From contig CAZVHB010000003.1 of assembly GCA_964626965.1 (NCBI GenBank), forward strand, positions 12,256 to 76,255: a stretch of 64,000 nucleotides of DNA, in the 5' to 3' direction. How positions within the stretch are numbered: the stretch's first letter is position 1; each line of letters starts with the position of its first letter. Both the position numbers and the translations under genes were made by a program. Shown here one piece after another: positions 1-45,569 of this stretch. The notes under the pieces are model-generated. The model worked only from the letters and a program-made list of their open reading frames with translations. It was not told where the DNA came from and searched no databases. The stretch is from an uncultured Candidatus Saccharibacteria bacterium (GTDB taxonomy: Bacteria; Patescibacteriota; Minisyncoccia; Phycocordibacterales; UBA9973).

Positions 1-302
1 TATTCCTCGCTTCAATCAATGTAAAATACCGTGACGTACGATATGTACTTCCTTTTTTCATACAAATACTCATGTTCGTCACTCCGGTCATCTACCCTGC
101 TGGAGTACTTGGTAAATACTCTTGGATACTTGCACTCAACCCAATGATGGGTGTGATACAAAGTGCGCGCGCAGCACTCTTAGGCACAACAGTACTCAAC
201 TGGACACTTGTGGGAATATCACTTGTTGCTACATTTATACTTATGCTCATTGGTATTTATACATTCAAAAAAACAGAGCGTTATTTTGCAGACATAATAT
301 AA
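1..302 (+). CDS. ABC-2 type polysaccharide exporter permease (Wzm/TagG-like), C-terminal part; 5' end lies outside the window
   Basis: The frame is open from the window edge to the stop at 302. The tail ...VTPVIYPAGVLGKYSWILALNPMMGVIQSARAALLG... is typical of an ABC-2 permease C-terminus, and it sits immediately upstream of an ATP-binding partner. Confidence 0.6.
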   Translation, partial: FLASINVKYRDVRYVLPFFIQILMFVTPVIYPAGVLGKYSWILALNPMMGVIQSARAALLGTTVLNWTLVGISLVATFILMLIGIYTFKKTERYFADII

Positions 303-307
303 AAAAA

Positions 308-1573
308 ATGAAACCAATAATCGAAGTAAAAAACATCAGTAAAAAATATAATATTAACCACCAGAGGGGTGGGTATATTACCCTACGTGACAGCCTGACG
401 AATGTTCTTAAAAACCCATTTGGATTTCTCAAAACAAAAACACAAGAAGAATTTTGGGCCCTCAAAGATGTGAATTTTGAAATCATGCCAGGTGAAATTA
501 TTGGTATTGTTGGACGTAACGGTGCAGGTAAATCTACCCTTCTAAAAATTCTGTCACAGATCACCCCACCAACAACAGGAGAGATAAAAATACACGGTAC
601 TGTTGGAAGTCTCCTTGAAGTTGGTACTGGATTTCACCCAGAACTCACTGGTCGAGAAAATATCTTTCTCAATGGTGCGATCCTTGGAATGAAACATAAA
701 GAAATCATCAAAAAATTTGATGACATCGTAAAATTTGCAGAGATAGAACAATTCCTAGACACACCCGTTAAATACTACTCAAGCGGTATGTATGTCAGAC
801 TCGCTTTCTCTGTCTCAGCACACATGACAACTGATATTCTTATCATAGATGAAGTTCTCGCTGTTGGAGATTCTGATTTCCAAAAAAAATGTTTAGGTAA
901 AATGGAAGACATAACAAACAGTGAAGGACGTACTATTATTTTCGTCAGTCACAACATGGCAACAGTAAAAAAACTCTGTACAAAATGTATTCTCTTTTCA
1001 AAAGGAAAGCTTAAAATGATCGGAGATACCGATAGTGTGATTGATGCGTATCTAAACGCAAAGCAAGAAGCATCAACAGATCAGACACCTGCCCAAATAA
1101 CCAACATAGCAAACAAAAGTGGTACACGTTTTACTGACATGAAAGTCTCAAACACAGAAGGACATTCCCTCTTAACAAGTAGTGATAAGTTAAAAATAGT
1201 ACTATCATATGATAGTGATACTGATGAAGTTATTAAAAACGCACGTATTGTCATAACAGTACATAGTAACTTTTCAAAAAATATAGTACTTCGACTTGAT
1301 AGTGATGTCACAACACAAACAGTGAGCGAAACATTACAACCTCGCGGAGAAATCATCTGCGAAACAGATGAACCCATTAACCTCACGGAAGGAACGTACA
1401 CAGTAGACATTGATTTCCTTATCGATGGAACGAGTGTTTCATACATTAAGGGTACTGCTACTTTTGAAGTCGAAACAGATCTCAAAAAATATAATTACAA
1501 AAACTATCCTGACAAGAATGTTGCTGATACTGTTATGAAATATTCATTCACTGAAAAAAATAATGAAAATTAG
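308..1573 (+). CDS. wzt: ABC transporter ATP-binding protein Wzt/TagH-like with a C-terminal ~170-aa extra (carbohydrate-binding-like) domain
   Basis: Walker A GRNGAGKST, an LSGG-like 'YSSGMYVRLAF' signature and Walker B ILIIDE. I chose the ATG at 308 (MKPIIEVKN); the ORF-track start at 122 is an upstream extension overlapping the permease. Confidence 0.8.
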   Translation: MKPIIEVKNISKKYNINHQRGGYITLRDSLTNVLKNPFGFLKTKTQEEFWALKDVNFEIMPGEIIGIVGRNGAGKSTLLKILSQITPPTTGEIKIHGTVGSLLEVGTGFHPELTGRENIFLNGAILGMKHKEIIKKFDDIVKFAEIEQFLDTPVKYYSSGMYVRLAFSVSAHMTTDILIIDEVLAVGDSDFQKKCLGKMEDITNSEGRTIIFVSHNMATVKKLCTKCILFSKGKLKMIGDTDSVIDAYLNAKQEASTDQTPAQITNIANKSGTRFTDMKVSNTEGHSLLTSSDKLKIVLSYDSDTDEVIKNARIVITVHSNFSKNIVLRLDSDVTTQTVSETLQPRGEIICETDEPINLTEGTYTVDIDFLIDGTSVSYIKGTATFEVETDLKKYNYKNYPDKNVADTVMKYSFTEKNNEN

Positions 1574-2345
1574 TATCTGCATTCCTACATACGAAATGCA
1601 TGGATTAGGAGCAGAGTTTCTTCGTCATAGTTTCGATATACTTATAAAACAAACATACAAAGATTTTGATATTATTATTTCTGATAATTCTATCGATACT
1701 AACATAGAAGAAGTGTGTAAAAAATACACAGATAGAATCTCTATTCACTATTACAAAAATGAAGATACCTTAAAGCGAATGGGTTCTAATATAAACAACG
1801 CACTACAAAAATCTACAGGAGACATTATAAAAATCCTCTTCTTAGATGATTTTCTAAGAGATGAAAATTCCCTCAAAGAAATTGCAGAGAATTTTGATTT
1901 AGAAAAAGACTCTTGGCTTGTTACTGGGTGTGAACATACTATAAATGGTACCTCTTTTTATAAGCCTCATTATCCAAAGTACAATAACAAAATTTACTTA
2001 GGTAAAAATACAATTGGATCTCCTTCTGTACTCACAATCAAAAACAAAAATCCTCTTCTTTTTGATAATTCCCTACGGTGGCTTATAGATTGTGATTACT
2101 ATAAGAGGTGTTATAATTCTTTTGGAAAACCAAAGATCCTAGATAAGATAAATGTCGTAATCCGAACAGGAGAACATCAAATCACTAACACAGAAGCGAC
2201 CGAAACACTCAAGTACAGAGAACTTCTGTATATTGTCAGAAAATACAGCAAAGGATATACACGGTTTAAATTACTTATAGAAAGTTTCGTCCAACACCAA
2301 ATAGATACAATAAAAATATGGATAAAATCAAACTTCCAAATGTAA
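1563..2345 (+). CDS. glycosyltransferase family 2
   Basis: N-terminal 'ISICIPTYE...DIIISDNS' GT2 motifs; 11-nt overlap with wzt suggests translational coupling. Confidence 0.7.
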   Translation: MKISICIPTYEMHGLGAEFLRHSFDILIKQTYKDFDIIISDNSIDTNIEEVCKKYTDRISIHYYKNEDTLKRMGSNINNALQKSTGDIIKILFLDDFLRDENSLKEIAENFDLEKDSWLVTGCEHTINGTSFYKPHYPKYNNKIYLGKNTIGSPSVLTIKNKNPLLFDNSLRWLIDCDYYKRCYNSFGKPKILDKINVVIRTGEHQITNTEATETLKYRELLYIVRKYSKGYTRFKLLIESFVQHQIDTIKIWIKSNFQM

Positions 2346-2941
2346 CCCTTATTGCTCTCACGGGTAAAAATATTGAAGGTCACCAGAAAGCACTCGACTA
2401 TAGTTGTCTAGGTATTGAATTTGGAGCAGTTAAACTCATTAACTCACCAAGCAAGAGCATAGACGAGTGGTCTCAAAAAATAGTCTATGACCTAGGAGAC
2501 TACGTTGATACAGAATTCGCGTTATTGATCCATGACGACGGTTTTGTTGTACACCCAGAAAGGTGGAACCCAGAGTGGCTACAATATGACTTCATCGGTT
2601 CACCCTTCCCAATGCCTCGGGATACTTTTTCGTATCGTGACATACATGGCAACATCCAAAGAGTTGGAAACAGTGTGTCATTACGAAGCAAGAAGCTCCT
2701 AGATCTCCCTAAAAAAATTGGAATGGAGTGGAAACCATTCCATGGATTTTATAATGAAGACGGATATATCTCAGTAAACATGCGTCATGTCTTTGAAGAA
2801 CACGGCTGTGTCTTTGCTCCATTTGACGTCGCAATACATTTTGGAAGAGAGACTCCGTTACCTGAAAATAAAAACATTCAACCATTTGTATTTCACAAAA
2901 ACAAAGGAGAAAATAAAAAGTATCCCAATTTTGAATTATGA
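2318..2941 (+). CDS. hypothetical protein in glycan operon (possibly a DUF-type glycosyltransferase-associated protein)
   Basis: Protein-like 207-aa ORF, overlap-coupled to both neighbours; no recognisable catalytic motif. Confidence 0.4.
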   Translation: MDKIKLPNVTLIALTGKNIEGHQKALDYSCLGIEFGAVKLINSPSKSIDEWSQKIVYDLGDYVDTEFALLIHDDGFVVHPERWNPEWLQYDFIGSPFPMPRDTFSYRDIHGNIQRVGNSVSLRSKKLLDLPKKIGMEWKPFHGFYNEDGYISVNMRHVFEEHGCVFAPFDVAIHFGRETPLPENKNIQPFVFHKNKGENKKYPNFEL

Positions 2942-4656
2942 TCGTCACAGAAATATACAAAGGGCAAGGACTCGGGAACCAGCTCTGGTGCTATGTGGTT
3001 ACTCGAGTTATTGCCAAAGATAGAGGCTATACATTTGGAATTAAATCTCCTGAGAAATTTAAGTGTCTTGATTTTATGAATCTCGATTTTGGTGAAAAAG
3101 TCATAGGTGGCAGTGGTCCCGAAGGAGGTTCACCACACACTCTTCCTGATGGAATCACTCATTATTATAATGAAAGAAAACTTGTTTACATGGATGGGAC
3201 AGACATTCGCACATACGATGAAAATCTTTTGAATGTTCCTGATAACACAAAAATAGATGGCATCATGCAGGACGAACAGTATATTATTCACAGAAAAAAC
3301 GAAATACGAGAATGGTTAAAAATAAAAGAAGGATATGAAGTACCAGAATACTCCAATGAAAATACCTGCATTATTAATTTCCGAGGTGGAGAGTATGTAG
3401 GACTCCAAGAAGTGTTCCTCACAAAAAAATACTGGAATGATGCAATTAAACACATGCGAGGGATAAACCCAAGTATGAAATTTGTCGTCGTTACTGACGA
3501 TGTAAAAACTGCAAAAAAATTCTTTCCTCATTTTGAATGTTCTCATAGATCAATCGGGCACGATTATTCCATTATTAATAATGCATATTATCTCATACTC
3601 TCAAATTCGAGCTTTGCCTTCTTCCCTGCTTGGCTTAATACGAGAATAAAAAAAATAATTGCACCAAAATACTGGGCAAGACACAATGTCTCTGATGGGT
3701 ATTGGGCGTGTGACTACAATCTTACCTCACAATGGATGTATTTAGATCGAGATGGGATACTGCATAATTATGATTCATGTAAAAAAGAGCTAGATCAGTA
3801 CAAGAACATACACTCAGATCTATACAAAAAAGTAAAAATAGAAGATACTTTTTTAGTCGTATCTAACTATTACAATGACCTAAGTTGGGTTCCTGAATAC
3901 ACAGATAATTATATTGTGTATGACCAAAGTGATGTGGCAATCTATCCACCAAAACTACATCTAGACAAAATTATTAAAAGCCCACACTTAGGACACAACA
4001 TCCGAGACTACTGTACCTACATTATTGATCATTATGAGAACCTACCAGAACGAGTAGCTTTTGTGACAGGTAATATTTTTCCAAGACACGTCGCGCGAGA
4101 TTGTTTCGACAAACTAGTGAATAATACGTTTTTTACTCCTTTTATCGACCATAGAAAACATCACACAAGGTGGCCAATTTCTTTTATCTCAAAAGATGGA
4201 CTGTACAATGAAATCAACGATAGTTGGTATCTTCATCACCACCCAACAAAATATTTTCATAATTACAATGATTTTCTCCAATTTTGTTTTAAAAAATCTG
4301 AACTACCAAAGTATGTAAAATTTACACCAGGTGCAAATTACATTGTTCCAAAAGAAAATATTTTAAAATTACCTAAAATATTTTACGAGAATTTGAGAGT
4401 ATTTGTCTCTCACTCCCCTACAGTAATCCCAGGTGAGTCACATATTATTGAACGGGCTTTATATACACTCTGGAGTAGTAATTTTGAAATTAACGAAAAT
4501 ATGCTTTCGCCAATAGGAGAAAACTTCAGTGCAAAACCAAGAATAAAAACAGCCTTTGTGTATAGAGCTGTTATGGTGTTAATACATACATTCTGGAATA
4601 CTGTAAATGTAGGCAATAAAGTTATTAATAAAATAAGTCAGAAATTATCTGTATGA
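2938..4656 (+). CDS. GT11-like (alpha-1,2-fucosyltransferase-like) domain fused to a C-terminal ~300-aa domain of unknown function
   Basis: N-terminal 'GQGLGNQLWCY', 'FRGGEYVG' and 'SNSSFAFFPAWL' match the GT11 hallmarks (GGLGNQMFQYA / HxRRGDY / ANSTFSWWAA). ATGA overlap with the upstream gene. Confidence 0.55.
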   Translation: MIVTEIYKGQGLGNQLWCYVVTRVIAKDRGYTFGIKSPEKFKCLDFMNLDFGEKVIGGSGPEGGSPHTLPDGITHYYNERKLVYMDGTDIRTYDENLLNVPDNTKIDGIMQDEQYIIHRKNEIREWLKIKEGYEVPEYSNENTCIINFRGGEYVGLQEVFLTKKYWNDAIKHMRGINPSMKFVVVTDDVKTAKKFFPHFECSHRSIGHDYSIINNAYYLILSNSSFAFFPAWLNTRIKKIIAPKYWARHNVSDGYWACDYNLTSQWMYLDRDGILHNYDSCKKELDQYKNIHSDLYKKVKIEDTFLVVSNYYNDLSWVPEYTDNYIVYDQSDVAIYPPKLHLDKIIKSPHLGHNIRDYCTYIIDHYENLPERVAFVTGNIFPRHVARDCFDKLVNNTFFTPFIDHRKHHTRWPISFISKDGLYNEINDSWYLHHHPTKYFHNYNDFLQFCFKKSELPKYVKFTPGANYIVPKENILKLPKIFYENLRVFVSHSPTVIPGESHIIERALYTLWSSNFEINENMLSPIGENFSAKPRIKTAFVYRAVMVLIHTFWNTVNVGNKVINKISQKLSV

Positions 4657-5576
4657 TGCACAAAATCAAAAACGCACTCTTATCTATTTTTAAAAAAGTA
4701 TCTAAGAGAGAGAAAACAGTAAAAATGTTAACTAAAGAAGAAATAGCTTCCATCCAAAAATATAGACCAACCATAAAAATATATGATATTTTTACTTACA
4801 ACGGTGAAGCTGATGTTTTGGAAATCCGTTTACATATATTAAAAGACGTCGTAGATGAGTTTATTATTGTGGAAGCTCCTACTACCTTCTCTGGGCTACA
4901 CAAGCCATTATATTTCAATGAACAAAAGGACCGCTTTGCTCCATTTTTAGATAAAATAAAATACTTTGTTATAAACGACTACCCAAATGACACAGCATTA
5001 TGCGAACTTGCTGACAGAAGCTCCAATGTACCTAAAGATGGTCCGGAACATTGGAGACGAGAGTTTTACCAAAAAGAAAGTATAAAAAAAGCACTGACTC
5101 ACCTCTCTGATGAAGACATCTGCTTCATTGGTGATGTGGATGAAATATGGAATCCAGAAATCGTCATTGATTATAGAAAAGACAGTATATTTAAATTACA
5201 GCAAGTTGTTTACTCATATTTCTTAAATAACAGATCTTCGGAAAAATGGGCTGGCACGCTCGTCACAAAATACAAAAATATAAAAAATAACTGTTTAAAT
5301 CATTTACGAACTGCAACAAAAACAAAATACCTATACGTAAAAAATGGAGGGTGGCATTTTACGAGTATTGGTGGAATAGATGAAATCCGAAGAAAATTAA
5401 ATGACTCTTACACAAAAGAAAGCTATAATACACAGATAGTGCAAGATAATCTAGAGCAAAGATTTGGTAAACAAGATTACATGGGTAGAAAATTTACATT
5501 CTCTGCTGATGAATCTGACTTACCAAAGTATATATTAGACAATAAAGAAAAATACAAAAAACTATTCAAAGAATAA
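4653..5576 (+). CDS. glycosyltransferase family 17-like (beta-1,4-N-acetylglucosaminyltransferase-like)
   Basis: 'DIFTYNGEADVLEIRLHILKDVVDEFIIVEAPTTFSGLHKPLYF' matches the GT17 pattern F.(F/Y)N.E.D.LE.RL..L...VD.F(V/I).E...TF.G..KPL.F. Confidence 0.5.
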   Translation: MMHKIKNALLSIFKKVSKREKTVKMLTKEEIASIQKYRPTIKIYDIFTYNGEADVLEIRLHILKDVVDEFIIVEAPTTFSGLHKPLYFNEQKDRFAPFLDKIKYFVINDYPNDTALCELADRSSNVPKDGPEHWRREFYQKESIKKALTHLSDEDICFIGDVDEIWNPEIVIDYRKDSIFKLQQVVYSYFLNNRSSEKWAGTLVTKYKNIKNNCLNHLRTATKTKYLYVKNGGWHFTSIGGIDEIRRKLNDSYTKESYNTQIVQDNLEQRFGKQDYMGRKFTFSADESDLPKYILDNKEKYKKLFKE

Positions 5577-5577
5577 A

Positions 5578-6570
5578 ATGAAGAACACTGACCACAAAGA
5601 TATAAATGTTGTTATTCCTGTGTATAACGGGGCGCGTTTTATCGTGGATGCACTTGACTCTGTAGTCCACCAAACACTCGCTCCAGAGAGGATTATTGTT
5701 ATTGATGACGGATCAACAGACAACACACATGAACTCGTTTCAAAATACAAAGAAACTTCACCTGTAGAAATCACGCTCATAAAGAAACAAAACGGTGGAC
5801 TCAGTTCAGCTCGTAATGCGGGAATCAAAGAAAGTACTTCAGAGTTTATTGCATTTTTAGATGCAGATGATACATGGGTAAAAGAAAAGCTCGAGGAACA
5901 AATATACATATACGATAAAACAGAATTTAAAAATCTAGCTTTAGTATATTGTGATTATGATGTCATAGATTCATCTGGAAAAGTAAAATACAAAAATTAC
6001 AAAGCTCCGCTTGATCAAAAGAGAATGCGTGGATCCGTATTTAAAAAACTCATTGAGAGAAACCAAATTGCTTCAAGTGGAAGTGGAGTGCTCATAAAAA
6101 GAGAGATATTTGATACAGTTGGTCTTTTCGATGAAACATTACCTTGGGGTGAAGATTGGGATATGTGGCTCCGAATTGCACAAAAGTTTGAAGTTGATTT
6201 CACCCCAAAAACACTGGTCCATATTCGTAAAAACGAACACAATATGACCGCTAATCCTACAAAAGTTTTTGAAGGTGAAGTACAGTTTTATAATAAGTGG
6301 ATACCACTCGTTGATAAAAAGTACCCTATTCCCTTATTTTGGGCTGATAAAATTACGTTTAGGATTCTACTCAATATCACAAAAAAGAATTTTTTAGTAC
6401 TATTAAAAAATAAACTTTCAGTAGAAAATTACAAAAAATTATTCAGGAAATCATTTGGATCTCTGTATCTATACATTCCTCTGTTTTTTATACGCCAAAT
6501 TTTCAATATACTTTTTTACCCAAAGTATCTACAAATAGCGACAAAATTCATAAAAAACAAAGGAGTATAA
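5578..6570 (+). CDS. glycosyltransferase family 2
   Basis: 'INVVIPVYNGARFIVDALDSVVHQT...IIVIDDGSTDNT' and 'AFLDADD' DxD motif. Confidence 0.75.
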   Translation: MKNTDHKDINVVIPVYNGARFIVDALDSVVHQTLAPERIIVIDDGSTDNTHELVSKYKETSPVEITLIKKQNGGLSSARNAGIKESTSEFIAFLDADDTWVKEKLEEQIYIYDKTEFKNLALVYCDYDVIDSSGKVKYKNYKAPLDQKRMRGSVFKKLIERNQIASSGSGVLIKREIFDTVGLFDETLPWGEDWDMWLRIAQKFEVDFTPKTLVHIRKNEHNMTANPTKVFEGEVQFYNKWIPLVDKKYPIPLFWADKITFRILLNITKKNFLVLLKNKLSVENYKKLFRKSFGSLYLYIPLFFIRQIFNILFYPKYLQIATKFIKNKGV

Positions 6571-6571
6571 A

Positions 6572-7420
6572 TTATATATTTTTATATAATGTATATACGC
6601 GAGAGAAAAAAGGTCTAAAAAATCTCATAGTTAAGAATCTGTATCCGTACATTCTTAAAGATATAAACATTACTGCTTGCCAATACTGTGGATACTGCTT
6701 TTTAAATTTCTTAATAAGCGTAAGTGATTTTTTAAATTGTTCTACTTTATTTTGAGAACTAATACTTTCACTTCTTAAGACAAGCTTCACTCCATACATA
6801 GGTATGTTAGCAAATGTACCTACTGTTCCTAATTTGAGCCATAATTCGTAATCTTCAATATGCCTTGTATCTGGAGACTCGCTATATCCACCAGTACTAA
6901 GTGCGGAGGATTTGATAAATAACACACTCGAGTGGGTAAAACAATTTTTATTTAAAATTTCACTTCGTATTTCTTTATCTGAGGTTGTATTATATTTTCT
7001 AAATATTTCCTTACCATTTTCATTTACTGCAATAAACCCAGTTCCAACCAAAACATGATCTGTATTTTCTACTAAAAATGCAACTTGCTGTTTAAGCTTA
7101 TCTCTATCTACCCACACATCATCATCATCAATACGAGCGATATATTCACCTTTTGCTTCTTGTATTCCACGATTGAGGGTTTTTTGAATTCCTAAATTTG
7201 TTTCATTTTTTATATACCGAATCCGGCTATCTTTTTGTGCAAGACTACTCACAACAGCACACGTACCATCAGTCGAACCATCATCAATTACCAAAAGTTC
7301 CCAGTTCGTATATGCCTGCGCAAGCACACTTAAAATAGACGCTTCAATGCGAAGTGCTCCGTTATATGTAGGAAGAATGATAGAAACGAGCTTGTCCATA
7401 TTACATTTTGATCCAATCAA
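6572..7420 (-). CDS. glycosyltransferase family 2
   Basis: 'VSIILPTYNGALRIEASILSVLAQAYTNWELLVIDDGSTDGT', 'RIDDDD'; true start may be the internal MDKLVS. Confidence 0.75.
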   Translation of the reverse strand: MIGSKCNMDKLVSIILPTYNGALRIEASILSVLAQAYTNWELLVIDDGSTDGTCAVVSSLAQKDSRIRYIKNETNLGIQKTLNRGIQEAKGEYIARIDDDDVWVDRDKLKQQVAFLVENTDHVLVGTGFIAVNENGKEIFRKYNTTSDKEIRSEILNKNCFTHSSVLFIKSSALSTGGYSESPDTRHIEDYELWLKLGTVGTFANIPMYGVKLVLRSESISSQNKVEQFKKSLTLIKKFKKQYPQYWQAVMFISLRMYGYRFLTMRFFRPFFSRVYTLYKNI

Positions 7421-8270
7421 GAGGAATCACATCACTCGCGTCGATAGACGCATCAGCAAACCATTGCTTTGGGCAGACAACTATTTTGCTCTTATTAGGA
7501 GAGAGCCACGCAGCCCACCAAGAAAATGAACTATTTGCGATAATGAAATGGTTGCAGAGCGACATAAGGAAAAGATTGCCTTCAGCTTTTTTCCCAGCGT
7601 ATTCATCACCCACGTATGTCGTTGGTATATCGAACTGCACATTCTCTCGACACCATGCGATATCATCAGAGAACACATAGACGTGTCCTAGTGTAGTTTT
7701 ACCACTAATCACCTCTACTGCATCTTTATAATATGTATTAGTAACCACTTCATGAGTTGCATTACCAACATAGTCCCCTCTTCTCACGTGTACACAGAGA
7801 GAATTTTGAGATTTAATTTCAAGAGCGAGTTTTTGGATATTTTCTGGTAATGCTTCTTTTACAATAAAATCTTTGCGAATCACCTCTTCAATATCAGAAA
7901 AATATTTTGGACTCTGCCAGTACCCATCAAGAAACAGGTTATCTCCTTTGTTAAAAATGGACGCATCAAAATTGAAACTTTTTTCTTGACCCTTGCTTTT
8001 GAAAAATTTTCTCACCAATGTGACAAAATACACGAAAAGTTTACTACTATAGAGTTTGTATAAAAATGGTATATCAGATTGCTCCGCGATATCAGCTTGA
8101 ATAGTAAATACATCGAGGTCATACCCTCGCTTTGTTACACCTTTTAAATTAAGATCGTAAAATGAAGTATCAAGTTTTAATGGGACATTGTGACGTAATG
8201 ACAGTGCTCTTCCACACGCATACTGAAACATTTGATTCCCCATTCCTCCTTTGAGTCGTACTATAATCAT
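7401..8270 (-). CDS. alpha-1,2-fucosyltransferase (GT11, FutC-like)
   Basis: 'KGGMGNQMFQYA', 'HVRRGDYV', 'ANSSFSWWAAWL' are the canonical GT11 motifs. Confidence 0.8.
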   Translation of the reverse strand: MIIVRLKGGMGNQMFQYACGRALSLRHNVPLKLDTSFYDLNLKGVTKRGYDLDVFTIQADIAEQSDIPFLYKLYSSKLFVYFVTLVRKFFKSKGQEKSFNFDASIFNKGDNLFLDGYWQSPKYFSDIEEVIRKDFIVKEALPENIQKLALEIKSQNSLCVHVRRGDYVGNATHEVVTNTYYKDAVEVISGKTTLGHVYVFSDDIAWCRENVQFDIPTTYVGDEYAGKKAEGNLFLMSLCNHFIIANSSFSWWAAWLSPNKSKIVVCPKQWFADASIDASDVIPLDWIKM

Positions 8271-8272
8271 AT

Positions 8273-9235
8273 CTATTTATTTGTTATATAGTTTTCAAGA
8301 AACCACTTGTAGGTCGACTCAACACCATCTCGTAACTGTATTTTTGCGTTCCAACCAAGTGAAGAGAGTCTTGAGACATCGAGTAGCTTACGAGGAGCGC
8401 CATCTGGTTTGGTTGTATCCCAAACAATTTCACCCTCGAAGCCAACAATTTCTTTTATCATCATCACGAGTTCTTTAATTGATACATCAACACCAGTTCC
8501 GACATTTACAAACATCGGACCTTTTTCATTTTCTTCTTTCGTTGGATTAAAATTATCCATAGCAAACAAACACGCCGAAGCTAAATCATCGACATGCAAC
8601 AATTCTCGTTTTGGTGTTCCAGTTCCCCACACCGTGACGTCTTTTGCGGAAGAGACCTTCGCCTCGTGCATTTTACGCATAAGCGCAGGTAATACATGAG
8701 AACTCTGTAAATCAAAATTATCATTTTGACCATAGAGATTTGTCGGCATCAGTGCGATAAAATTCGTCCCATATTGACGATTATAACTCTGACACAATTT
8801 AATACCGGCTATTTTTGCAAGACCATATGGTTCGTTTGTTGGTTCAATAAGACCAGTCAGAAGATATTCTTCTTTCATTGGTTGATCAGCAAATTTTGGG
8901 TAAATACATGAACTCCCGAGGAAAAGTAGTTTGGTTACACCGTTTATTCGTGCACTCTCAATAATGTTTGTTTCAATAACAAGGTTTCGGTAGATAAAAT
9001 CTGCTGGATAGGTATTATTGGCGAGAATCCCTCCAACCTTTGCTGCTGAGAGAAAGACATACTCTGGCTTCTCTTCTGCAAAAAATGCTTCTACATCTGA
9101 CTGACGCAATAAATCAAGTTCTTCATGCGTACGCAAAAGGAGATTTGTGTACCCTTGGGTTTCAAGTGCCCGCACAAGTGCAGAACCAACGAGTCCTTTG
9201 TGTCCGGCAACATAAATTTTTGAATCTTTTTTCAT
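8273..9235 (-). CDS. fcl: GDP-L-fucose synthase (GDP-4-keto-6-deoxy-D-mannose 3,5-epimerase/4-reductase)
   Basis: 'KIYVAGHKGLVGSA...' NAD(P) Rossmann fold, YxxxK in 'YGLAKIAG', length 320 aa, adjacent to gmd. Confidence 0.85.
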   Translation of the reverse strand: MKKDSKIYVAGHKGLVGSALVRALETQGYTNLLLRTHEELDLLRQSDVEAFFAEEKPEYVFLSAAKVGGILANNTYPADFIYRNLVIETNIIESARINGVTKLLFLGSSCIYPKFADQPMKEEYLLTGLIEPTNEPYGLAKIAGIKLCQSYNRQYGTNFIALMPTNLYGQNDNFDLQSSHVLPALMRKMHEAKVSSAKDVTVWGTGTPKRELLHVDDLASACLFAMDNFNPTKEENEKGPMFVNVGTGVDVSIKELVMMIKEIVGFEGEIVWDTTKPDGAPRKLLDVSRLSSLGWNAKIQLRDGVESTYKWFLENYITNK

Positions 9236-9238
9236 ATG

Positions 9239-10312
9239 TTATTTTAAATAGTCTTCACTTAATAATCGACGTTCTGTAAATTCACCATCAATCATAATTT
9301 TTATCAGTTCTTTAAAAGTGACATTTGGTGTCCAATTAAGTTTCTCTTTACATTTTGTGGCATCACCGAGGAGTACATCCACTTCACTTGGTCGATAATA
9401 CGCTGGGTCAATACGAATTATCTCTTTACCTGTTTTCTCTTCTATCCCTACTTCATCAAGACCTGTTCCCTTCCACATAATCTTGTATCCCACCATCTCA
9501 GCTGCACACTCTACAAACTCCCGAACAGAGTGTGTTTCTCCTGTCGCAACAACAAAATCATCCGGTGTGTCAGCTTGAAGCATAAGCCACATTGCTTCAA
9601 CATAGTCTTTTGCGTACCCCCAGTCTCTTTTAGCATCTAAATTACCAAGAAAAATTGTTTCTTTTTTACCGAGCACAATATCTACAAGTCCTTCCGTAAT
9701 TTTTTTTGTAACAAACGTTCTTCCTCGCCTTGGTGATTCATGATTAAACAAAATTCCATTAGAAATGAACATATCATATGCCTCACGGTAATTCACACAA
9801 ATCATATGTGAGAACACTTTCGCGCATGCATACGGACTGCGTGGATTAAACGGTGTTGTTTCTTTTTGTGGCATTTCGAGTACTTTACCAAACATTTCGC
9901 TTGATCCAGCTTGATAAAACTTTACAGGAAGTTTGCTCTCACGTACTGCATCAAGCAACCGCACAGTTCCAAGCGCATCGATATCTGTCGTGTATTCTGG
10001 AATGTCGAAACTTACACGCACATGACTCTGTGCTCCAAGATTATAAATTTCATCTGGTTTACTTTTTCGAATCACACTATTAATACTCTGAGAATCGGAC
10101 AGATCTCCAAAATGAAGCAAAAGGTTTCTATTATCTGTATGTGGGTCTTGATAGATATGATCTAGTCTTCCAGTATTAAAACTCGAAGAACGTCTAATCA
10201 TCCCATGCACTTCGTATCCTTTTGCAAGTAAAAATTCAGCCAAATATGACCCATCTTGTCCTGTAATTCCTATGATTAATGCTCTTTTTTTGTTTTCCAT
10301 ATTAAATACCAT
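9239..10312 (-). CDS. gmd: GDP-mannose 4,6-dehydratase
   Basis: '[26 protein letters not shown]' and the overall Gmd signature; 357 aa. Confidence 0.85.
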
Positions 10313-11210
10313 TATACACTTTTAAATCCGTAATGCCTTTTTCAAGAGATACTGACGGTTCCCAACCCAGAAGCTCTTTCGCCTTTAAAACACTCGCTAT
10401 GGTGTGTTTTGGCTCTAAACGAGGGGGTATGTGTACCGTCTCACCGCTAATAAGCTCTGCGATGTAATTAATAGAAAAGTTTTTTCCCGTACCGAGATTC
10501 ATCACTTCGCCATTACCCACCTTGCCTGAAGTCATAGCTTGTATGTTGGCTCTCGCTACATCTGTGACGTGGATATAGTCTCGAGTATTTGTCCCATCAC
10601 CGACGATCTGCATCGGTTCACCTTTTTTCTTAAATTCAACAAAACGAGGAATGACAGATGCGTATGACCCGACAGCACTTTGCCTTGGTCCATAAACATT
10701 AAAATACCTAAAACAAACTGTCTCAAGTCCATATACAGTAGCATAGAGTTTCATATAGACTTCCCCAATATATTTTTGAGCACCATACGGGGATAATTGT
10801 CGCGCATCCACCTCCATCTCTTCTGTTATCGGCATAATATCTTGATTACCATATATCGCTGAAGATGAAGCAAATACAACTCTCTTCACTTTATTTACAC
10901 GACACGCCTCAAGTACTGAGAGTAATCCATTTACATTAATGTCATTTGTCTCAATTGGATTCTCTAGCGAGTATTGAACTTGGGGTATTGCTGCTTCATG
11001 AAAGACACATACTGCATCTTTAAAGACAGGTATAAGCACTTCTGTATTCCTGATATCAACTTCATGTAAAGTTGCTTTTTGATTGAGATTTTCTTTTTTA
11101 CCAGCAGATAAATTATCTATCACATGGACATCGTATCCACTTTCAATTAACATATCAACAATATGTGACCCGATAAACCCTGCTCCACCTGTAACGATTA
11201 CTTTTTGCAT
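10302..11210 (-). CDS. NAD-dependent sugar-nucleotide epimerase/dehydratase (UDP-glucose 4-epimerase family)
   Basis: '[16 protein letters not shown]', 'YGAQKYIGE' (YxxxK), 'FNVYGPRQ'. Confidence 0.7.
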
Positions 11211-11221
11211 ACCTGAAATAT

Positions 11222-13264
11222 TTACTTAAACTCTAAAAGCTTATCTTGGATAAGTTCAGTCACAATTTTAGGCATATCGTTATGCCCCTTCAATCTCTCT
11301 ACCGCTTTCATGAAATTCTTTTTATCTTTCTTTTCTGAAAAATATTGGATAAAAAATAGGTACATATCATTATTTTCTTTTTTTTGAAATGAAAAATAAG
11401 CAGGACTTGAATCAAAAACAGTTTCAAGATTCTCAAAAGATTCTTCGTATTTTTCTTGGGTAAATAAATTAATAGCCAGAGCATACCCTACATCAATCTT
11501 TTGTGGATTGTACTCTAACACACTCCTCAAAAGAGTTTCTCCACGACTGACGAGTTCCATATCCTTAAGATCTTTCCCTGCATCAGTATACGTAATTGCG
11601 GTTGTTAATAAAAATTGATAGTCAGCTGGAACTTTTTCTAAATACCTGTCTGCTTGGGCAAGTGCAATACGCACAAGTTCAAGCGAATGTGGATCTTTCA
11701 CTATATCTAACTCTTGCACAGATACAAGAAAATATGCTCGAATCGGTTTCTGAGCCAGAGTGAAAGGTTCAAAAACAGTATGCATCCAAGTACTCATAAA
11801 CGCAGTATCCTTTGTTTTTTGTATTATATCGTACCGCCTCATTTGTGTATTTGCAATAATATTATTTTGAACATACCCAAAAATCAAGAGAGAAGTAACT
11901 ATAAGGAAAAATGTCACCAGAAGGAGAGAGTTCCTCATAAATAGAGAAGTATATGCTACATTTTCTGAATACTCCCTATTATTCTCGACCTCTACTTCCG
12001 GTCCAATTACAAAAGCAAGAACAGAAAACAGTGCGAGCATTGTAGTAATATGATCAAACAAGAAAAAGAGATGAACTAAAAGCATCACACCAAAAGCAAG
12101 AAATGCGATGTGAGAATATGAAAAAGTTTTCTTTTTAAGAAATGATCTGAAGTAAAAAAGAAAAATCGAAAGATACGCCAACAGCCCAAGAAGACCAGTC
12201 ATAACCAGCACATCTACGAACTTATTGTGAGCACGATCAAACCAAGTTATCTCATAGTCAAATTGCTTCGGGTTAAAATACTTTGTATATGCAACGATAA
12301 AATTCTCAGGACCCCAACCAATGAGTGATTTTTTAATACTTTCAGCTTGAGGATTCACTGAAGAAAGACCAATACGGCTCATCATTAATCTCGTTTGAAT
12401 CGTATCATCGCTTGTATTCATAACTGCAACACGAGACAGACCAGGAACCTTATTCCATATTTCACTTTTTCTTGTTGAGATAAAGAGTGTAGAGAAAGCA
12501 AGAACAGCAACAAGAAGCAATAGAGCAATTTTACGAACAGGGACACGAAGATACTTCATCTGCTTACCTCGAACAATCACATAAGTAAGCACACAAAGAA
12601 ATCCAACCACGAGGGCAACAAAAGTACCCCTTGTTTGTGTAATAAAAATACCTACGATAGAAAGAATAAGTGTTACGAAGGAAATATACTTCCAGAATAT
12701 ATTTTTAACCTGACTCAGGATAATAAGTGAGCAGAAAATTGAAAAAATGAGATAGCCAGCAAGAAAGCTCGGATTATCTAAAAAAGAACCTGGTCTTCCA
12801 GCACCTTCGAGTAACTGCATACACTGTTTAACCAAAACTGCCAAAGAAGCAAGGATATGTAATTTAAAAAAAATAAACCAATCTTTTTTCTCAAAAAGAA
12901 AAACACTCAAAAGAAAATAGAGGAAGAAGAATATAAGTGCAAGCAATCCTTCTCCTCTTTGAGCAGTACTCCAAAACGCAGTATAGGTATCAACAGCGAA
13001 AATAGTACTCACAACTGACAAAAAAATGAAAAGAAAAACTGAAAGAGCAAGAGGATTTTTCACAAGGCGCTTACTTTTCTGGATGATGGTTTCGCGATAG
13101 GTACTATCACGACTGACAGCTATGATAAAAAATACACTCGCAAACAAAATGGCCCCACGAAGAAATAGATTTTCACCCATTATAAAAGGAGAGAAAGCAG
13201 CAGGTGCGAACATAAACGGAGTAAAAGCGAGTGCCCACAAACATACCTTTGCTATCTTATTCAT
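11222..13264 (-). CDS. O-antigen ligase/Wzy_C-family polytopic membrane protein with C-terminal TPR repeats
   Basis: About 10 TM helices, a Wzy_C-like periplasmic loop ('TQTRGTFVALVVGFL'), then a soluble TPR-like C-terminal third. Confidence 0.6.
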   Translation of the reverse strand: MNKIAKVCLWALAFTPFMFAPAAFSPFIMGENLFLRGAILFASVFFIIAVSRDSTYRETIIQKSKRLVKNPLALSVFLFIFLSVVSTIFAVDTYTAFWSTAQRGEGLLALIFFFLYFLLSVFLFEKKDWFIFFKLHILASLAVLVKQCMQLLEGAGRPGSFLDNPSFLAGYLIFSIFCSLIILSQVKNIFWKYISFVTLILSIVGIFITQTRGTFVALVVGFLCVLTYVIVRGKQMKYLRVPVRKIALLLLVAVLAFSTLFISTRKSEIWNKVPGLSRVAVMNTSDDTIQTRLMMSRIGLSSVNPQAESIKKSLIGWGPENFIVAYTKYFNPKQFDYEITWFDRAHNKFVDVLVMTGLLGLLAYLSIFLFYFRSFLKKKTFSYSHIAFLAFGVMLLVHLFFLFDHITTMLALFSVLAFVIGPEVEVENNREYSENVAYTSLFMRNSLLLVTFFLIVTSLLIFGYVQNNIIANTQMRRYDIIQKTKDTAFMSTWMHTVFEPFTLAQKPIRAYFLVSVQELDIVKDPHSLELVRIALAQADRYLEKVPADYQFLLTTAITYTDAGKDLKDMELVSRGETLLRSVLEYNPQKIDVGYALAINLFTQEKYEESFENLETVFDSSPAYFSFQKKENNDMYLFFIQYFSEKKDKKNFMKAVERLKGHNDMPKIVTELIQDKLLEFK

Positions 13265-13306
13265 ACATAAATACTAGCAAAAATAGAGGGAAAAAGCCAT
13301 AAAATG

Positions 13307-15337
13307 TTACTTTAGTTTAAAATCAGGAATATCTTTCTGTGCCTGAGCTAAAGCTTCAGTATACAGTTTCTGATCTCCAATAATCTCTGCAAATTGAACC
13401 AGAAGTCGATGCGAAGACGCAAAGGTCGGATCAATGGCAATACCCTCCTTATAAGCATTTTCTGCTGATTTTAAGTCCCCTTTCCAGACATAGATCTGTG
13501 CCATACTCCAGTGCACATTTGGATTTGTTGGTGATAATTTTTTTGCTTTATTGAGTACCATTAGAACGTGATCAAACATCTCAGGATTTGCACTCATCTC
13601 ATTCAGATATAATAATGTTCCGTATAAATGTGCAATAGTAATTGATAAACGATAATCAGTTGGGTTACGAACAGAGACTTCTTCAAGATAATTAATCAAA
13701 CCAGTTAAATCCTCAACAACATACGGGAGGAGTTTTGTGTCGTTTTTGAATTGTGCTGGATTAGCTGAGTATTTTTTATACAGATCATCAGCAAGCCCTC
13801 CAACATCCCAAGCTTCACCAACAGAAGAACCAGAAAGAAGATCTTTGTACGCTTCTGCTCTTTTATTAATCGGCATAACAAATATCTCTGCATACGCTCC
13901 TGATTTAGATACAGGCATCTTTACAAAAAAGATAAGACAAGCAACACAGGCAAGACCGAGAAAACCGACAAGAAATACATCGTACTCTGAATCCGTGTAC
14001 CTCTTTTTCAGTGGAACTGTTTGACCATCATCACCATACAAGCTGTACAGTATTCCTGTAATCATAAAAAGTGCTGTAAGAGATAGGTTTGAATCAAATG
14101 TCATTAAGTTATTTACAATATAGGCGACAAGAAGTCCTACAAAAATAGAAACTTGAATCTTTGTGAGTACACCTTTTTTGTGTAAATGCAACAATACATA
14201 AAACAAACTACCCAAAAAGAGAGCATATAAAATAATGAGCGGATATCCACCAGACACACCAAGATCATAATATTGATTGTGAGCACGATCCGCCCAACCT
14301 TCATAGCTATTCTCTACTCGGAGGATTTTTGGATTGAAATTCTCTTGAAATGCAATTTGATAATTTTCTGGACCGTACCCAAGAACAGGATTTTTATCTA
14401 TTGCTTTTTGTGCAACATCCCAAAAAATAAATCGACTTCCTCGAGCTTGTTCTGCAAATTTGTTATGTAAGGTTGTATTTGGAGTAACTAATTGTACCCA
14501 TAAAAACCCAGAAACGAGTACTGCTATGGTCGCAATACCAACACTCAATCCCCTGATACTTTTCTTGGAAGAAAGAAACATATAACCAACGACGCTTGCT
14601 CCAATACCACTGATAATTGCTAGTATTGTTCCTCGAGCAGTACCAAGAATACTTCCATCAGAAAAAAGGCGGTACAGACTCGCAAAAACTGGCGAGAATA
14701 TAATAATGGCCATAGTACTGTAAATAAATAATTTTTTAGTTTTACTTATATTTTTACTACAGAGAAGAAACAAAGATACAGCCAGCGTAAACAAAAAATA
14801 ACCGGCAGCAAGTGTTGAGTTACCCGCAAACCCTCCCCCAGCATCTGTTTTTAACACAGTAAAAGGTAAATGAAAGCCATCAACACCCATCCATACACTG
14901 AGAGCCAAGAGAGAAGACCCGGCAATAAAATACTGAAACAACGAAGTAACATACGTCATTCCAGATTTCTTAACAAGCGAGGCAGTAACGAGAGCAAAAG
15001 CAAAGACATGATAAAAAGTCAAAAGCCCTGTGCCCCGCCCAAGAGAAGACCAGAAAGCGAGATTGGGATTTACTGCATAGATTGTTGCAAGTGTCATCCA
15101 GGTTAAAACTACAGAAGGTATTGCAAACATAAGAAGTGTTTTCTTTGAAAGACGATACTGTCGATCCTTAAAAGCAACATAGAGCCATAAGAAAAAGAGA
15201 ATTTCAACCACCCCATACATAAAAAATGTTTTTGATGAGATATGCGGAAATAGCCCACGACTCCAAAAAATGACCGGCATCAAAAGCACTAAAGTAAAAG
15301 AGAGGTATTCAAGCATGTTTTCTTTGAATGTATTCAT
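13307..15337 (-). CDS. O-antigen ligase/Wzy_C-family polytopic membrane protein with C-terminal TPR repeats (paralogue of 11222-13264)
   Basis: Same architecture as its neighbour ('ARGTILAIISGIGASVVGY', C-terminal TPR: 'AENAYKEGIAIDP'). Confidence 0.6.
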   Translation of the reverse strand: MNTFKENMLEYLSFTLVLLMPVIFWSRGLFPHISSKTFFMYGVVEILFFLWLYVAFKDRQYRLSKKTLLMFAIPSVVLTWMTLATIYAVNPNLAFWSSLGRGTGLLTFYHVFAFALVTASLVKKSGMTYVTSLFQYFIAGSSLLALSVWMGVDGFHLPFTVLKTDAGGGFAGNSTLAAGYFLFTLAVSLFLLCSKNISKTKKLFIYSTMAIIIFSPVFASLYRLFSDGSILGTARGTILAIISGIGASVVGYMFLSSKKSIRGLSVGIATIAVLVSGFLWVQLVTPNTTLHNKFAEQARGSRFIFWDVAQKAIDKNPVLGYGPENYQIAFQENFNPKILRVENSYEGWADRAHNQYYDLGVSGGYPLIILYALFLGSLFYVLLHLHKKGVLTKIQVSIFVGLLVAYIVNNLMTFDSNLSLTALFMITGILYSLYGDDGQTVPLKKRYTDSEYDVFLVGFLGLACVACLIFFVKMPVSKSGAYAEIFVMPINKRAEAYKDLLSGSSVGEAWDVGGLADDLYKKYSANPAQFKNDTKLLPYVVEDLTGLINYLEEVSVRNPTDYRLSITIAHLYGTLLYLNEMSANPEMFDHVLMVLNKAKKLSPTNPNVHWSMAQIYVWKGDLKSAENAYKEGIAIDPTFASSHRLLVQFAEIIGDQKLYTEALAQAQKDIPDFKLK

Positions 15338-15358
15338 ACGCCGATTATATCAAAAAAT

Positions 15359-15489
15359 CCCCACACCTACCAAACCATTATTTCAATATGTTTTAACTAC
15401 TCATAAAAGGTAACCATTGGTACATACATTTATGTCTCTACACAATGTGTATTTGAAATCAAAAACACGATGGTTTGGTAGGTGTGGGG
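15359..15489 (+). repeat. ~131-bp element bounded by perfect 20-bp terminal inverted repeats (copy 1 of 2; MITE-like or structured ncRNA)
   Basis: CCCCACACCTACCAAACCAT at 15359-15378 and its exact reverse complement at 15470-15489. The second copy at 30991-31128 has conserved internal ends and a compensatory change. Confidence 0.55.
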
Positions 15490-15495
15490 AAAAAC

Positions 15496-15527
15496 AAAAA
15501 ACCACCCAAATAGGGTGGTTTTTTGTT
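15496..15527. terminator. bidirectional rho-independent terminator
   Basis: ACCACCC-AAATA-GGGTGGT hairpin flanked by an A-run and a T-run. Confidence 0.7.
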
Positions 15528-15569
15528 AACTCTGAAAAGTTTACCTTTCCATCAGTCTAATACTAAGTA

Positions 15570-18136: not shown

Positions 18137-19042
18137 TTACTCCATGTCCTTTAGAAAAAAGTAGCGACTCCAGCGACGGTCCCCTTCTTTTCGGAGGTAT
18201 CCGTCTTTAATCAAATCATTGAGTTCTCGCTGAATAGTCTTCTCACTACAGTTGCCAATATGATTCAAAATGTCCTTTAGACTTGATTGCACCTGAGCTT
18301 GAGTATTATCTTTAATAAACTTAAGGATAGTCTTCTTTCTATGATTTTTATCTTGAGAATTTTTTGATTCAAGAAGTATATTTTTTGCAGAATGTCCTAT
18401 AGAAGAGATTCTATTGAGGGGCATTTTTTGTCCTATAGAAACTGGTGGTTTCTCTTTTTTATCGGTCACTATTTTTTGATTTTTATCATTGAGCTTTTGC
18501 ATTTTTTGTCCTATAGAATTTTGAATATTTTTCTTATCGGACAAATTACTTATTCCATTTCCATAATTCATGAGGGGGAGAAAATCGAGATCTTCGCCAA
18601 AGAAATTTTCATCAAAGAGTGGTGATACAACACCGTGCTCTTTCGAATAGTATTCCTTGTATCCATCAACATATTCTACAAGAGTTTTTATAAACATATC
18701 CACTTCTCGATCAAATAAATTTTTACTTTCAGGGGAGAGGATACCTTGGATCACAACACCCTGAGTGAGTGTTTTGAGTTCTTTAAGGACATACGAAATC
18801 TCTGAAGCAACATGAGCATGATGCTCGTTTTCTCGTGGATGGAGCATATAGGACATTTCAAGAAAATCTATACCAAGATACTGCAGTCTATCGGTCATAT
18901 TTTTATGAGACACGTACTTCGTGAGAAGAAACACAGCGTGATATATCCGATCAGCCTTATCGGTCATTTTTTTAAATATATCTTCAAAATGTGTGTATAT
19001 TTTAATATTACTCTGTATATTGTGTGGATTTTTTTCGTACAT
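18137..19042 (-). CDS. hypothetical protein with C-terminal winged-helix (DeoR-like HTH) and internal peptide repeats (SIGQKM x3, MTD(K/R) x3)
   Basis: C-terminal '...NHIGNCSEKTIQRELNDLIKDGYLRKEGDRRWSRY' resembles a wHTH; the gene carries the repeated DNA motifs noted in findings. Confidence 0.5.
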   Translation of the reverse strand: MYEKNPHNIQSNIKIYTHFEDIFKKMTDKADRIYHAVFLLTKYVSHKNMTDRLQYLGIDFLEMSYMLHPRENEHHAHVASEISYVLKELKTLTQGVVIQGILSPESKNLFDREVDMFIKTLVEYVDGYKEYYSKEHGVVSPLFDENFFGEDLDFLPLMNYGNGISNLSDKKNIQNSIGQKMQKLNDKNQKIVTDKKEKPPVSIGQKMPLNRISSIGHSAKNILLESKNSQDKNHRKKTILKFIKDNTQAQVQSSLKDILNHIGNCSEKTIQRELNDLIKDGYLRKEGDRRWSRYFFLKDME

Positions 19043-24972: not shown

Positions 24973-24977
24973 AATAA

Positions 24978-25655: not shown

Positions 25656-25658
25656 ATA

Positions 25659-26282: not shown

Positions 26283-26288
26283 AGGAAG

Positions 26289-27008: not shown

Positions 27009-27063
27009 AGTTTTATTTTAGTATAAATAGAGCGTTCTGTTAAGCAATGAGTCCCCAGAATAC

Positions 27064-41366: not shown

Positions 41367-41524
41367 TCTATTGTTAAATCGACACCATTTTTTAGAACCA
41401 GAAAGTGTACAATTTTTGATAAATTTTTTTGCGTAAGATTGAGCTAAATTCATATACCTTTATAATACGTGGAATAGGGTTGTATTGCAAACGACCAGCA
41501 CGGTCTTTTGCACCTTCTATAGAG

Positions 41525-42642: not shown

Positions 42643-42671
42643 AGTAGATTATAGATTAATTAATAACTTCT

Positions 42672-45263: not shown

Positions 45264-45569
45264 GACCTGTAACTCATCATTAACCTTCTTGTAAAAAAAT
45301 ACATGCGAATCGGTCATCAAAAAACCAAACAAAGAATTCCTCACTTGGTTTGTATGCACTTTTCACACCCTCCTAAAAACTTTAGTACTCTTATTCTAAT
45401 CCTTTGCAAAAAAAATGTAAACAAAAAGTATAGTCAAATCACCCGAGAAAGAATATAAAAATGCAAGTCAATACACACTACTAAATAAGGTATACAGTGT
45501 AAGATTTTTTCGGTCTGTCCACAGGTGTTTTTTAAGACAAAAAGTATTAAGATTAGACGCAAAACATAC

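Follow-up and report, generated by a model that had tools for sequence, protein, structure and literature searches.

A recurrent ABC-transporter-dependent glycan locus of Patescibacteria and its probable link to surface-protein glycosylation

The S-layer O-glycosylation (slg) gene clusters of Geobacillus stearothermophilus NRS 2004/3a and Paenibacillus alvei combine a WbaP-like initiating enzyme, a Wzm/Wzt exporter of the ATP-binding cassette (ABC) type, sugar-nucleotide genes located in the cluster and a Wzy_C enzyme that has tetratricopeptide repeats (TPR) (PMC2943079). This Wzy_C enzyme, WsaB or WsfB, is the predicted protein O-oligosaccharyltransferase of the system, and a C-terminal TPR region is carried by both WsfB and PglL (PMC2943079). 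The same gene set, namely a WbaP-like initiator, Wzm/Wzt, nucleotide-sugar genes and a Wzy_C transferase, is present in a locus of an uncultured Candidatus Saccharibacteria bacterium. Its greater part fills positions 1–15337 of the stretch of DNA analysed here, a window of 64,000 nucleotides (GenBank assembly GCA_964626965.1, contig CAZVHB010000003.1, positions 12,256 to 76,255 of the forward strand). Bacteria of the candidate phyla radiation (CPR, or Patescibacteria) are tiny, mostly uncultured episymbionts whose surface chemistry is almost unknown, although host recognition and phage resistance must depend on this surface. The locus described below probably directs the synthesis of an ABC-transporter-dependent, polyprenyl-phosphate-linked surface glycan, with final transfer by Wzy_C/TPR proteins and a surface protein as the most likely acceptor. 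As a glycan locus it belongs to a familiar general type, and it extends the existing picture without overturning it. It is notable for an uncharacterised, widely conserved and variably fused block of enzymes and for interchangeable deoxy-sugar cassettes, and it is probably linked to the glycosylation of surface proteins in CPR bacteria.

The original prediction, made from the letters of the DNA, had described two convergent operons of glycan-locus genes, and all the genes that it named were recovered by the open reading frame (ORF) listing and the Pfam and NCBIfam scans, at the positions given in Table 1. They form two tightly packed, convergent strings. The plus string runs from Wzm (a fragment) through Wzt, a family 2 glycosyltransferase (GT2), a DUF5672 protein, a GT11-like/DUF3431 fusion protein and a GT17-like enzyme to a further GT2. 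The minus string consists of two Wzy_C+TPR membrane proteins, an epimerase of the short-chain dehydrogenase/reductase (SDR) type, gmd, fcl, a FutC-like GT11 and a GT2. Within each string, neighbours overlap by up to 28 bp or are separated by up to 42 bp, which indicates two operons, and the stop codons of the two strings (6570/6572) lie 1 bp apart (window 6568–6574). A promoter/terminator scan, which does not define transcription units, detected no terminator-like hairpin at the convergence point. Promoter-like sites, one of them just upstream of the minus string, were rarer in the scanned sequence than in shuffled sequence. The 20 nt that precede the starts of the locus genes (window 308–17561) are A/T-rich, with no obvious Shine-Dalgarno motif. 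Two of the locus genes terminate in TGA, so that the standard bacterial code applies and UGA recoding was set aside. A horizontally acquired island was likewise set aside, since the GC content of the locus (0.33–0.39) falls inside the range of the window.

The start of the locus lies upstream of the window. An exact-protein look-up led to a Logan contig, L001, which matches the window at 100% across 11,573 nt and reaches 2.7 kb further upstream, where it encodes a full-length Wzm of 274 aa with the PF01061 domain and a 430-aa polyprenyl glycosylphosphotransferase of the Bac_transf type. By its family assignment, the latter is the expected initiating enzyme for the chain. The predicted Wzm/Wzt exporter is present with both of its components; of Wzm, the window itself holds only a 99-aa fragment. 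A cluster look-up of the window proteins returned no names or accessions.

The evidence on the exporter extends to its putative specificity domain. In PDB sequence searches, the best match to Wzt was the O-antigen Wzt of Aquifex aeolicus (8dku, E 3e-63), with an alignment that extends into the C-terminal domain, and TagH/TarH was matched as well (E 1e-53). The C-terminal domain by itself found no matches among PDB sequences even at E ≤ 10, and Pfam Wzt_C scored 22.6 bits on it, under the cut-off of 30.4. An AlphaFold model of residues 250–421, built on a 75-sequence alignment of full-length CPR Wzt homologues, is all-beta with a predicted local distance difference test (pLDDT) score of 91.4. 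In a Foldseek search of the PDB, the best 17 matches to this model were all Wzt carbohydrate-binding domains (CBDs), with template modelling (TM) scores of 0.57–0.74. They include those of A. aeolicus (8dky/6o14, E 6e-9, TM 0.74), Raoultella terrigena O12 (5hno/5hnp) and Escherichia coli O9a (2r5o, E 6e-7, TM about 0.65), and the matches that follow them are generic lipid-binding beta-sandwiches. The extra C-terminal domain of Wzt that had been proposed at the outset is thus confirmed, at the level of the structural model, as having the Wzt CBD fold. Among relatives, the CBD is 30–61% identical as against 61–79% for the ATPase domain, a faster divergence that is expected for a specificity domain. 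A correlation between CBD identity and the neighbouring sugar cassette was looked for and not seen. Possible targets of the CBD are a terminal sugar, for which fucose is the obvious guess, or the product of a DUF5672 or DUF3431 activity.

Full-length homologues of Wzt and of the fusion protein (45–75% identity) come overwhelmingly from metagenome-assembled genomes (MAGs) of Patescibacteria, in agreement with the CPR-type organism assumed originally. In a scan of relatives limited to one genome per species, which yielded 113 relatives and 78 loci, the block GT2–DUF5672–GT11-like–DUF3431–GT17–GT11 recurred, with varying fusions, in no fewer than 113 genomes at the species level. Its carriers are mostly Nomurabacteria, Paceibacterota, Parcubacteria and other Patescibacteria; the remaining ones are, by label, the isolate Citrifermentans bremense R1, Thiobacillus, Elusimicrobia and Altiarchaeales, and the labels of some MAGs may not be trustworthy. 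A tblastn matrix of 57 non-redundant loci of at least 15 kb recovered the GT11-like domain in 56 loci, the separate GT11 in 55, GT17 in 54, the first GT2 in 47 and DUF5672 in 43. The gene context in three relatives shows the same order, with the additional fusions GT2+DUF5672 and GT17+GT11. Taken over all relatives, gene fusions couple GT2 with DUF5672 (a single fusion protein in the loci L003, L004 and L072), GT11-like/DUF3431 with GT17, and GT17 with GT11. The presence of these genes in nearly all 57 loci, combined with the fusions, argues that they are a conserved, functionally coupled block. In one related locus (L036, 4636–5580), the GT17 homologue has an in-frame stop codon, which may point to a pseudogene or to a fault in the assembly.

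Within 10 kb of the block, gmd/fcl occur in 16 of the 57 loci and a cassette for a CDP-glucose-derived deoxyhexose in 12, with both present in two loci. In the CDP cassette, RfbF and RfbG, which both exceed their equivalog cut-offs, are joined by RfbH-like and RmlC-like proteins and an SDR. Over the same distance, Wzm/Wzt are encoded in 12/57 loci (11 with a CBD) and Wzy_C in 26/57. The locus of the cultured Citrifermentans strain (L072; NZ_AUGE01000001.1, 429–21437) holds the same glycosyltransferase block at 33–56% identity, with the GT11-like and DUF3431 parts as separate ORFs. This locus is O-antigen-like and comprises Wzz, a CDP-deoxyhexose cassette, a fused-type ABC exporter, a methyltransferase and GT4 enzymes. 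It offers a strain in which the product of the block could be determined directly.

Regarding the individual enzymes, the separate 289-aa protein can be placed in the GT11 family by its Pfam score and motifs, as the FutC-like label of the original prediction implied. The fusion protein had been called GT11-like, a wording that suits its N-terminal domain well: PF01531 scores 23.0 bits on it, just under the cut-off of 23.9, and RGGEY replaces RRGDY. The DUF3431 part of the protein scores 42.1 bits. Sequence and profile searches of the PDB gave no meaningful match to the fusion protein. In its AlphaFold model (pLDDT 93, two domains), the N-terminal domain is structurally matched by FUT8, POFUT1/2 and the plant AtFUT1 (E 2e-5), and also by viral GT11/Fut1_Fut2-like models (TM 0.71–0.74, E about 1e-10). 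Judged from the model, this domain has a fucosyltransferase-superfamily fold and is GT11-like, not a demonstrated GT11 member. Homologues of the fusion protein number 2,191 at 45–69% identity, and many of these are proteins of 860–920 aa with GT17 fused C-terminally.

The GT17-like enzyme had been considered rare in bacteria. Its assignment to GT17 stands, on an alignment that spans positions 62–254 of the 348 positions of the PF04724 profile (about 190 positions), but its rarity is only relative: the family comprises 7,289 representative clusters at E ≤ 1e-3, and the enzyme is found in nearly every related locus. It received no NCBIfam name, and sequence and profile searches of the PDB found no solved relative. 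Within GT17, the activity of MGAT3 is beta-1,4-GlcNAc transfer. For DUF5672, the profile search found no PDB relative. A kinship between DUF5672 and DUF3431 was considered and dropped, as the profile–profile comparison gave none (probability 0.8%). With both GT11 and GT17 assigned by Pfam and a beta-sandwich fold in the Wzt extension, the original prediction held on the points on which it could have failed.

The sugar-nucleotide genes point to fucose. Both gmd and fcl pass their equivalog cut-offs, so that the GDP-L-fucose pathway, described earlier as complete, is indeed so only from GDP-mannose onward; a PGM/PMM is encoded at 48791–50134 of the window. The sugar epimerase that had been noted is a GalE-like SDR. 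From this gene content we infer that the polymer is fucosylated. For the 289-aa GT11, the adjacent gmd/fcl are circumstantial evidence of a GDP-L-fucose donor and an alpha-1,2 linkage. The GT11-type enzymes could in principle move another 6-deoxyhexose, with gmd/fcl serving some other purpose and the polymer carrying no fucose, given that many related loci, while keeping both GT11-type enzymes, have a CDP-deoxyhexose cassette in place of gmd/fcl or lack any cassette nearby. In the window, however, gmd and fcl stand immediately upstream of GT11 in one operon, the GT11 has the canonical fucosyltransferase motifs and the locus contains no other sugar-nucleotide pathway, which makes a polymer without fucose very improbable.

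The destination of the glycan would be decided by the two Wzy_C/TPR genes (11222–15337), which, like DUF5672 and the membership in a widespread conserved locus type, did not figure in the original prediction. Their products are distant paralogues (25% identity, BLASTP E 5e-22) with at least 10 hydrophobic segments each. In PDB searches, the first returned nothing meaningful and the second was matched solely through its TPRs (by those of OGT). Directly upstream of these genes lies the gene for a 663-aa Ser/Thr-rich protein with a PG_binding_1 domain, and 12 related loci from different species have a homologue of it immediately upstream of Wzy_C and in the same orientation. No S-layer family match was found. 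Based on its sequence and position, it is a candidate for the glycan acceptor, nothing more.

A mechanism that accommodates these observations would begin on the cytoplasmic face of the membrane, where the phosphoglycosyltransferase of the WbaP/WcaJ type, whose gene lies a short distance upstream of the window, would initiate the chain on polyprenyl-phosphate. Extension would be carried out by the three GT2 enzymes together with the block of DUF5672, GT11-like/DUF3431 and GT17-like enzymes. Gmd and Fcl would produce GDP-L-fucose, from which the FutC-like GT11, and perhaps the GT11-like domain as well, would add fucose. The completed chain would then be exported by Wzm/Wzt, with the beta-sandwich domain of Wzt presumably binding a feature of the finished chain, probably at its non-reducing end. 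Outside the membrane, one or both of the Wzy_C/TPR proteins would move the glycan from the lipid carrier onto its acceptor. In a CPR cell without lipopolysaccharide (LPS), this acceptor would most likely be a surface protein, O-glycosylated as in the Gram-positive slg clusters, and the adjacent Ser/Thr-rich peptidoglycan-binding protein would be a candidate for it.

Several observations weigh against this mechanism. In the PDB searches, neither Wzy_C protein had a sequence match to a solved WaaL or O-oligosaccharyltransferase, and neither contains a PglL-specific Pfam domain. Among the 14 ORFs of the locus, Pfam and NCBIfam identified no methyltransferase, kinase or 3-deoxy-D-manno-octulosonic acid (Kdo) transferase, that is, none of the classical makers of a Wzt-read cap. 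ManC, the mannose-1-phosphate guanylyltransferase that would supply GDP-mannose, was not found among the window ORFs scanned. DUF5672 and DUF3431 are without demonstrated activity, and the DUF3431 domain gave weak GT-A-like fold matches only. Finally, the Citrifermentans block stands in an O-antigen-like locus with a different ABC exporter, and hence the block is not tied to protein glycosylation.

The last point bears on an alternative in which the chain is made and exported as above, whereas the Wzy_C/TPR proteins work in a WaaL-like manner, passing the glycan to a lipid acceptor to give a lipoglycan, or in which a wall-linked secondary polymer is formed. Wzy_C is the WaaL family, diderm relatives carry the same block in an O-antigen-type locus, and PglL-specific domains were not detected, all of which agrees with such an outcome. 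On the other hand, CPR relatives are not known to synthesize lipid A. Moreover, the window ORFs scanned include no LCP-type wall ligase, and the conserved adjacency of a secreted Ser/Thr-rich protein suits a protein acceptor better. TPR-bearing Wzy_C enzymes have, in addition, been described for the protein O-oligosaccharyltransferases WsfB and PglL (PMC2943079). A lipid- or wall-linked product is thus the less likely outcome, though one with a real share of the probability. It is also conceivable that the Wzy_C/TPR proteins stand outside the pathway, as polymerases or ligases for another glycan, while the product of Wzm/Wzt is released or kept as a capsule-like, lipid-anchored polymer. The parts do appear separable, as just 26 of the 57 loci have Wzy_C and just 12 have Wzm/Wzt within 10 kb of the block, and there is a weak match to the repeat-unit polymerase family TIGR04370 (23.8 bits). 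However, the Wzy_C genes are the first members of the packed minus string to which gmd, fcl and GT11 also belong (gaps of 11–42 bp), the arrangement of Wzy_C genes with the gmd/fcl/GT11 string is the same in two related loci (L002 and L074), and no Wzx-type flippase was found in the locus by the Pfam scans. A separate role for these proteins is accordingly improbable, and transfer of the exported glycan to a surface protein by Wzy_C/TPR is preferred.

A more far-reaching proposal can be built on protein transfer, and it is offered as speculation. Patescibacteria may possess, in this locus type, a conserved system for the O-glycosylation of surface proteins, in which the block would build a common core and lineages would swap the deoxy-sugar added to it, GDP-L-fucose here and a CDP-3,6-dideoxyhexose type elsewhere. 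The CBD of Wzt would recognise this sugar, instead of a cap made of methyl, phosphate or Kdo, as the mark of a finished chain, and Wzy_C/TPR would attach the chain to the peptidoglycan-anchored Ser/Thr-rich protein and possibly to pilins. We regard the whole of this scheme as rather unlikely to hold in every part. If it did, these episymbionts would possess a variable coat of relevance for attachment to the host and escape from phages. Type IV pilus genes (for PilB-like ATPase, PilO-like and PilM-like proteins) and a 579-aa large pilin-like protein with an N-terminal pilin methylation motif are located at window 23245–28188 (−) and 39714–41453 (−). Pilins are possible glycosylation targets; pilin O-glycosylation in Saccharibacteria has been predicted only (PMC11623550).

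Over 15 kb of a very small genome is spent on a single glycan here, and the locus type turns up in many lineages of CPR bacteria. This investment and this recurrence make it a concrete, testable candidate for a surface glycan. It also draws attention to DUF5672, DUF3431 and the bacterial GT17-like enzyme as conserved proteins without assigned activity. A literature search with the terms DUF5672, DUF3431, Patescibacteria with Wzt or O-antigen ligase, and CPR with fucose retrieved no description of this locus type.

Further genes of the window were noted in passing. A 301-aa ORF at 18137–19042 (−) has no Pfam match, and its C-terminus, judged by eye, resembles a DNA-binding helix-turn-helix; the gene at the equivalent position in L002 encodes 306 aa and gives a weak match to HTH_DeoR. 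The ORF may encode a regulator of the locus. A 926-aa protein at 56525–59305 (−) gives weak matches to coupling proteins of the TrwB/TraG type, which hint at a component of type IV secretion or a conjugation-like process. Class I ribonucleotide reductase is encoded by genes for its large (with ATP-cone) and small subunits at 41644–45359 (−). Housekeeping genes, among them those for FtsK, RecA, IF-3 and TruB, are scattered over 19–52 kb of the window.

Table 1. Features of the glycan locus and its immediate surroundings. Positions refer to the window unless the contig L001 is named; where two scores are given, the second is the cut-off.
Feature	Position	Strand	Size	Evidence and remarks
Wzm (ABC-2 permease), C-terminal part	3..302	+	99 aa	cut by window start; coding 3–299, stop codon 300–302; frame-3 translation; NF050109 Wzm/RfbD E 3.5e-7
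Wzt, exporter ABC ATPase	308..1573	+	421 aa	ABC_tran 75.9 bits
Predicted Wzt C-terminal beta-sandwich CBD	1055..1573	+	aa 250–421	AlphaFold2 model and Foldseek
GT2 glycosyltransferase	1563..2345	+	260 aa	PF00535 54.6 bits
DUF5672 protein	2318..2941	+	207 aa	PF18922 33.8 bits
GT11-like/DUF3431 fusion protein	2938..4656	+	572 aa	Pfam and AlphaFold2; GT11-like about aa 1–297, DUF3431 about aa 300–530, C-terminal helix
GT17-like glycosyltransferase	4653..5576	+	307 aa	PF04724 77.9 bits vs 26; DVDEIW motif
GT2 glycosyltransferase, final plus-string gene	5578..6570	+	330 aa	PF00535 110.1 bits
GT2 glycosyltransferase, final minus-string gene	6572..7399	−	275 aa from ATG	PF00535 121.4 bits; start from L001 gene call and sequence
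FutC-like GT11, alpha-1,2-fucosyltransferase-family enzyme	7401..8270	−	289 aa	PF01531 121.3 bits vs 23.9; GGMGNQMFQYA and HVRRGDY motifs
fcl, GDP-L-fucose synthase	8273..9235	−		NF047922 equivalog 502.5 bits vs 500
gmd, GDP-mannose 4,6-dehydratase	9239..10312	−		TIGR01472 559.3 bits vs 415
GalE-like SDR sugar-nucleotide epimerase/dehydratase	10302..11210	−		PF01370 216 bits; TIGR01179 187.7 bits, under 262.3
Wzy_C (O-antigen-ligase family) polytopic membrane protein, C-terminal TPR-like region	11222..13264	−	680 aa	PF04932 54.5 bits vs 31.7
Second Wzy_C+TPR membrane protein	13307..15337	−	676 aa	PF04932 52.2 bits vs 31.7; TPR_11 30.2 bits
Promoter-like site	15344..15373	−		TTGGTA, 18 nt spacer, TATAAT, with TG; consensus scan 10/12; pattern match only
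Secreted Ser/Thr-rich protein, N-terminal PG_binding_1	15570..17561	−	663 aa	PF01471 24.3 bits; signal-peptide-like N-terminus; long S/T/G-rich stretches (linker)
Bac_transf phosphoglycosyltransferase, outside the window	L001 796–2088		430 aa	TIGR03025 324.2 bits vs 295.55

The locus recalls several known systems. Helicobacter pylori FutC and E. coli WbsJ are GT11 alpha-1,2-fucosyltransferases accompanied by gmd-fcl. The GT11 of the window resembles them in its family score, in the GxGNQMFQYA and HxRRGDY motifs and in its adjacent gmd/fcl, whereas the second, divergent GT11-like domain, with RGGEY and fused to DUF3431, sets the locus apart. With Neisseria PglL and Pseudomonas PilO/TfpO, the locus shares a polytopic membrane enzyme of the Wzy_C type, a C-terminal TPR in the case of PglL (PMC2943079) and the presence of type IV pilus genes in the window. 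It differs in that PglL-specific domains and a sequence match to a solved relative are absent and the pilus genes are 8–25 kb away. The export of O-antigens by CBD-bearing Wzt, as in E. coli O9a, R. terrigena/Klebsiella O12 and A. aeolicus, provides the counterpart for Wzm, for the nucleotide-binding domain and beta-sandwich CBD of Wzt, and for cytoplasmic assembly of the chain by several glycosyltransferases. In contrast to these systems, the CBD here is only 11–17% identical, a WbdD-like or Kdo-transferase terminator gene is missing, the initiator is of the Bac_transf and not the WecA type, and the host presumably lacks LPS.

The slg clusters come closest. They differ from the locus in using rhamnosyltransferases where GT11, GT11-like/DUF3431, GT17-like and DUF5672 proteins are encoded here, and dTDP-rhamnose where GDP-fucose would be used. 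The locus is further distinguished by the absence of a cap methyltransferase, by its two Wzy_C/TPR paralogues and by having no proven S-layer protein. The likenesses concern the design as a whole: a monoderm-type cell, a WbaP-like initiating phosphoglycosyltransferase combined with Wzm/Wzt, cluster-encoded nucleotide-sugar genes, a Wzt predicted to read a terminal cap, and tightly packed, overlapping genes. In both, the final transfer is ascribed to a putative Wzy_C-domain O-oligosaccharyltransferase that carries TPR, as WsfB does, or is partnered with it, as in WsaA/WsaB. By this analogy, the overall design of the locus most resembles that of the Gram-positive S-layer O-glycosylation clusters.

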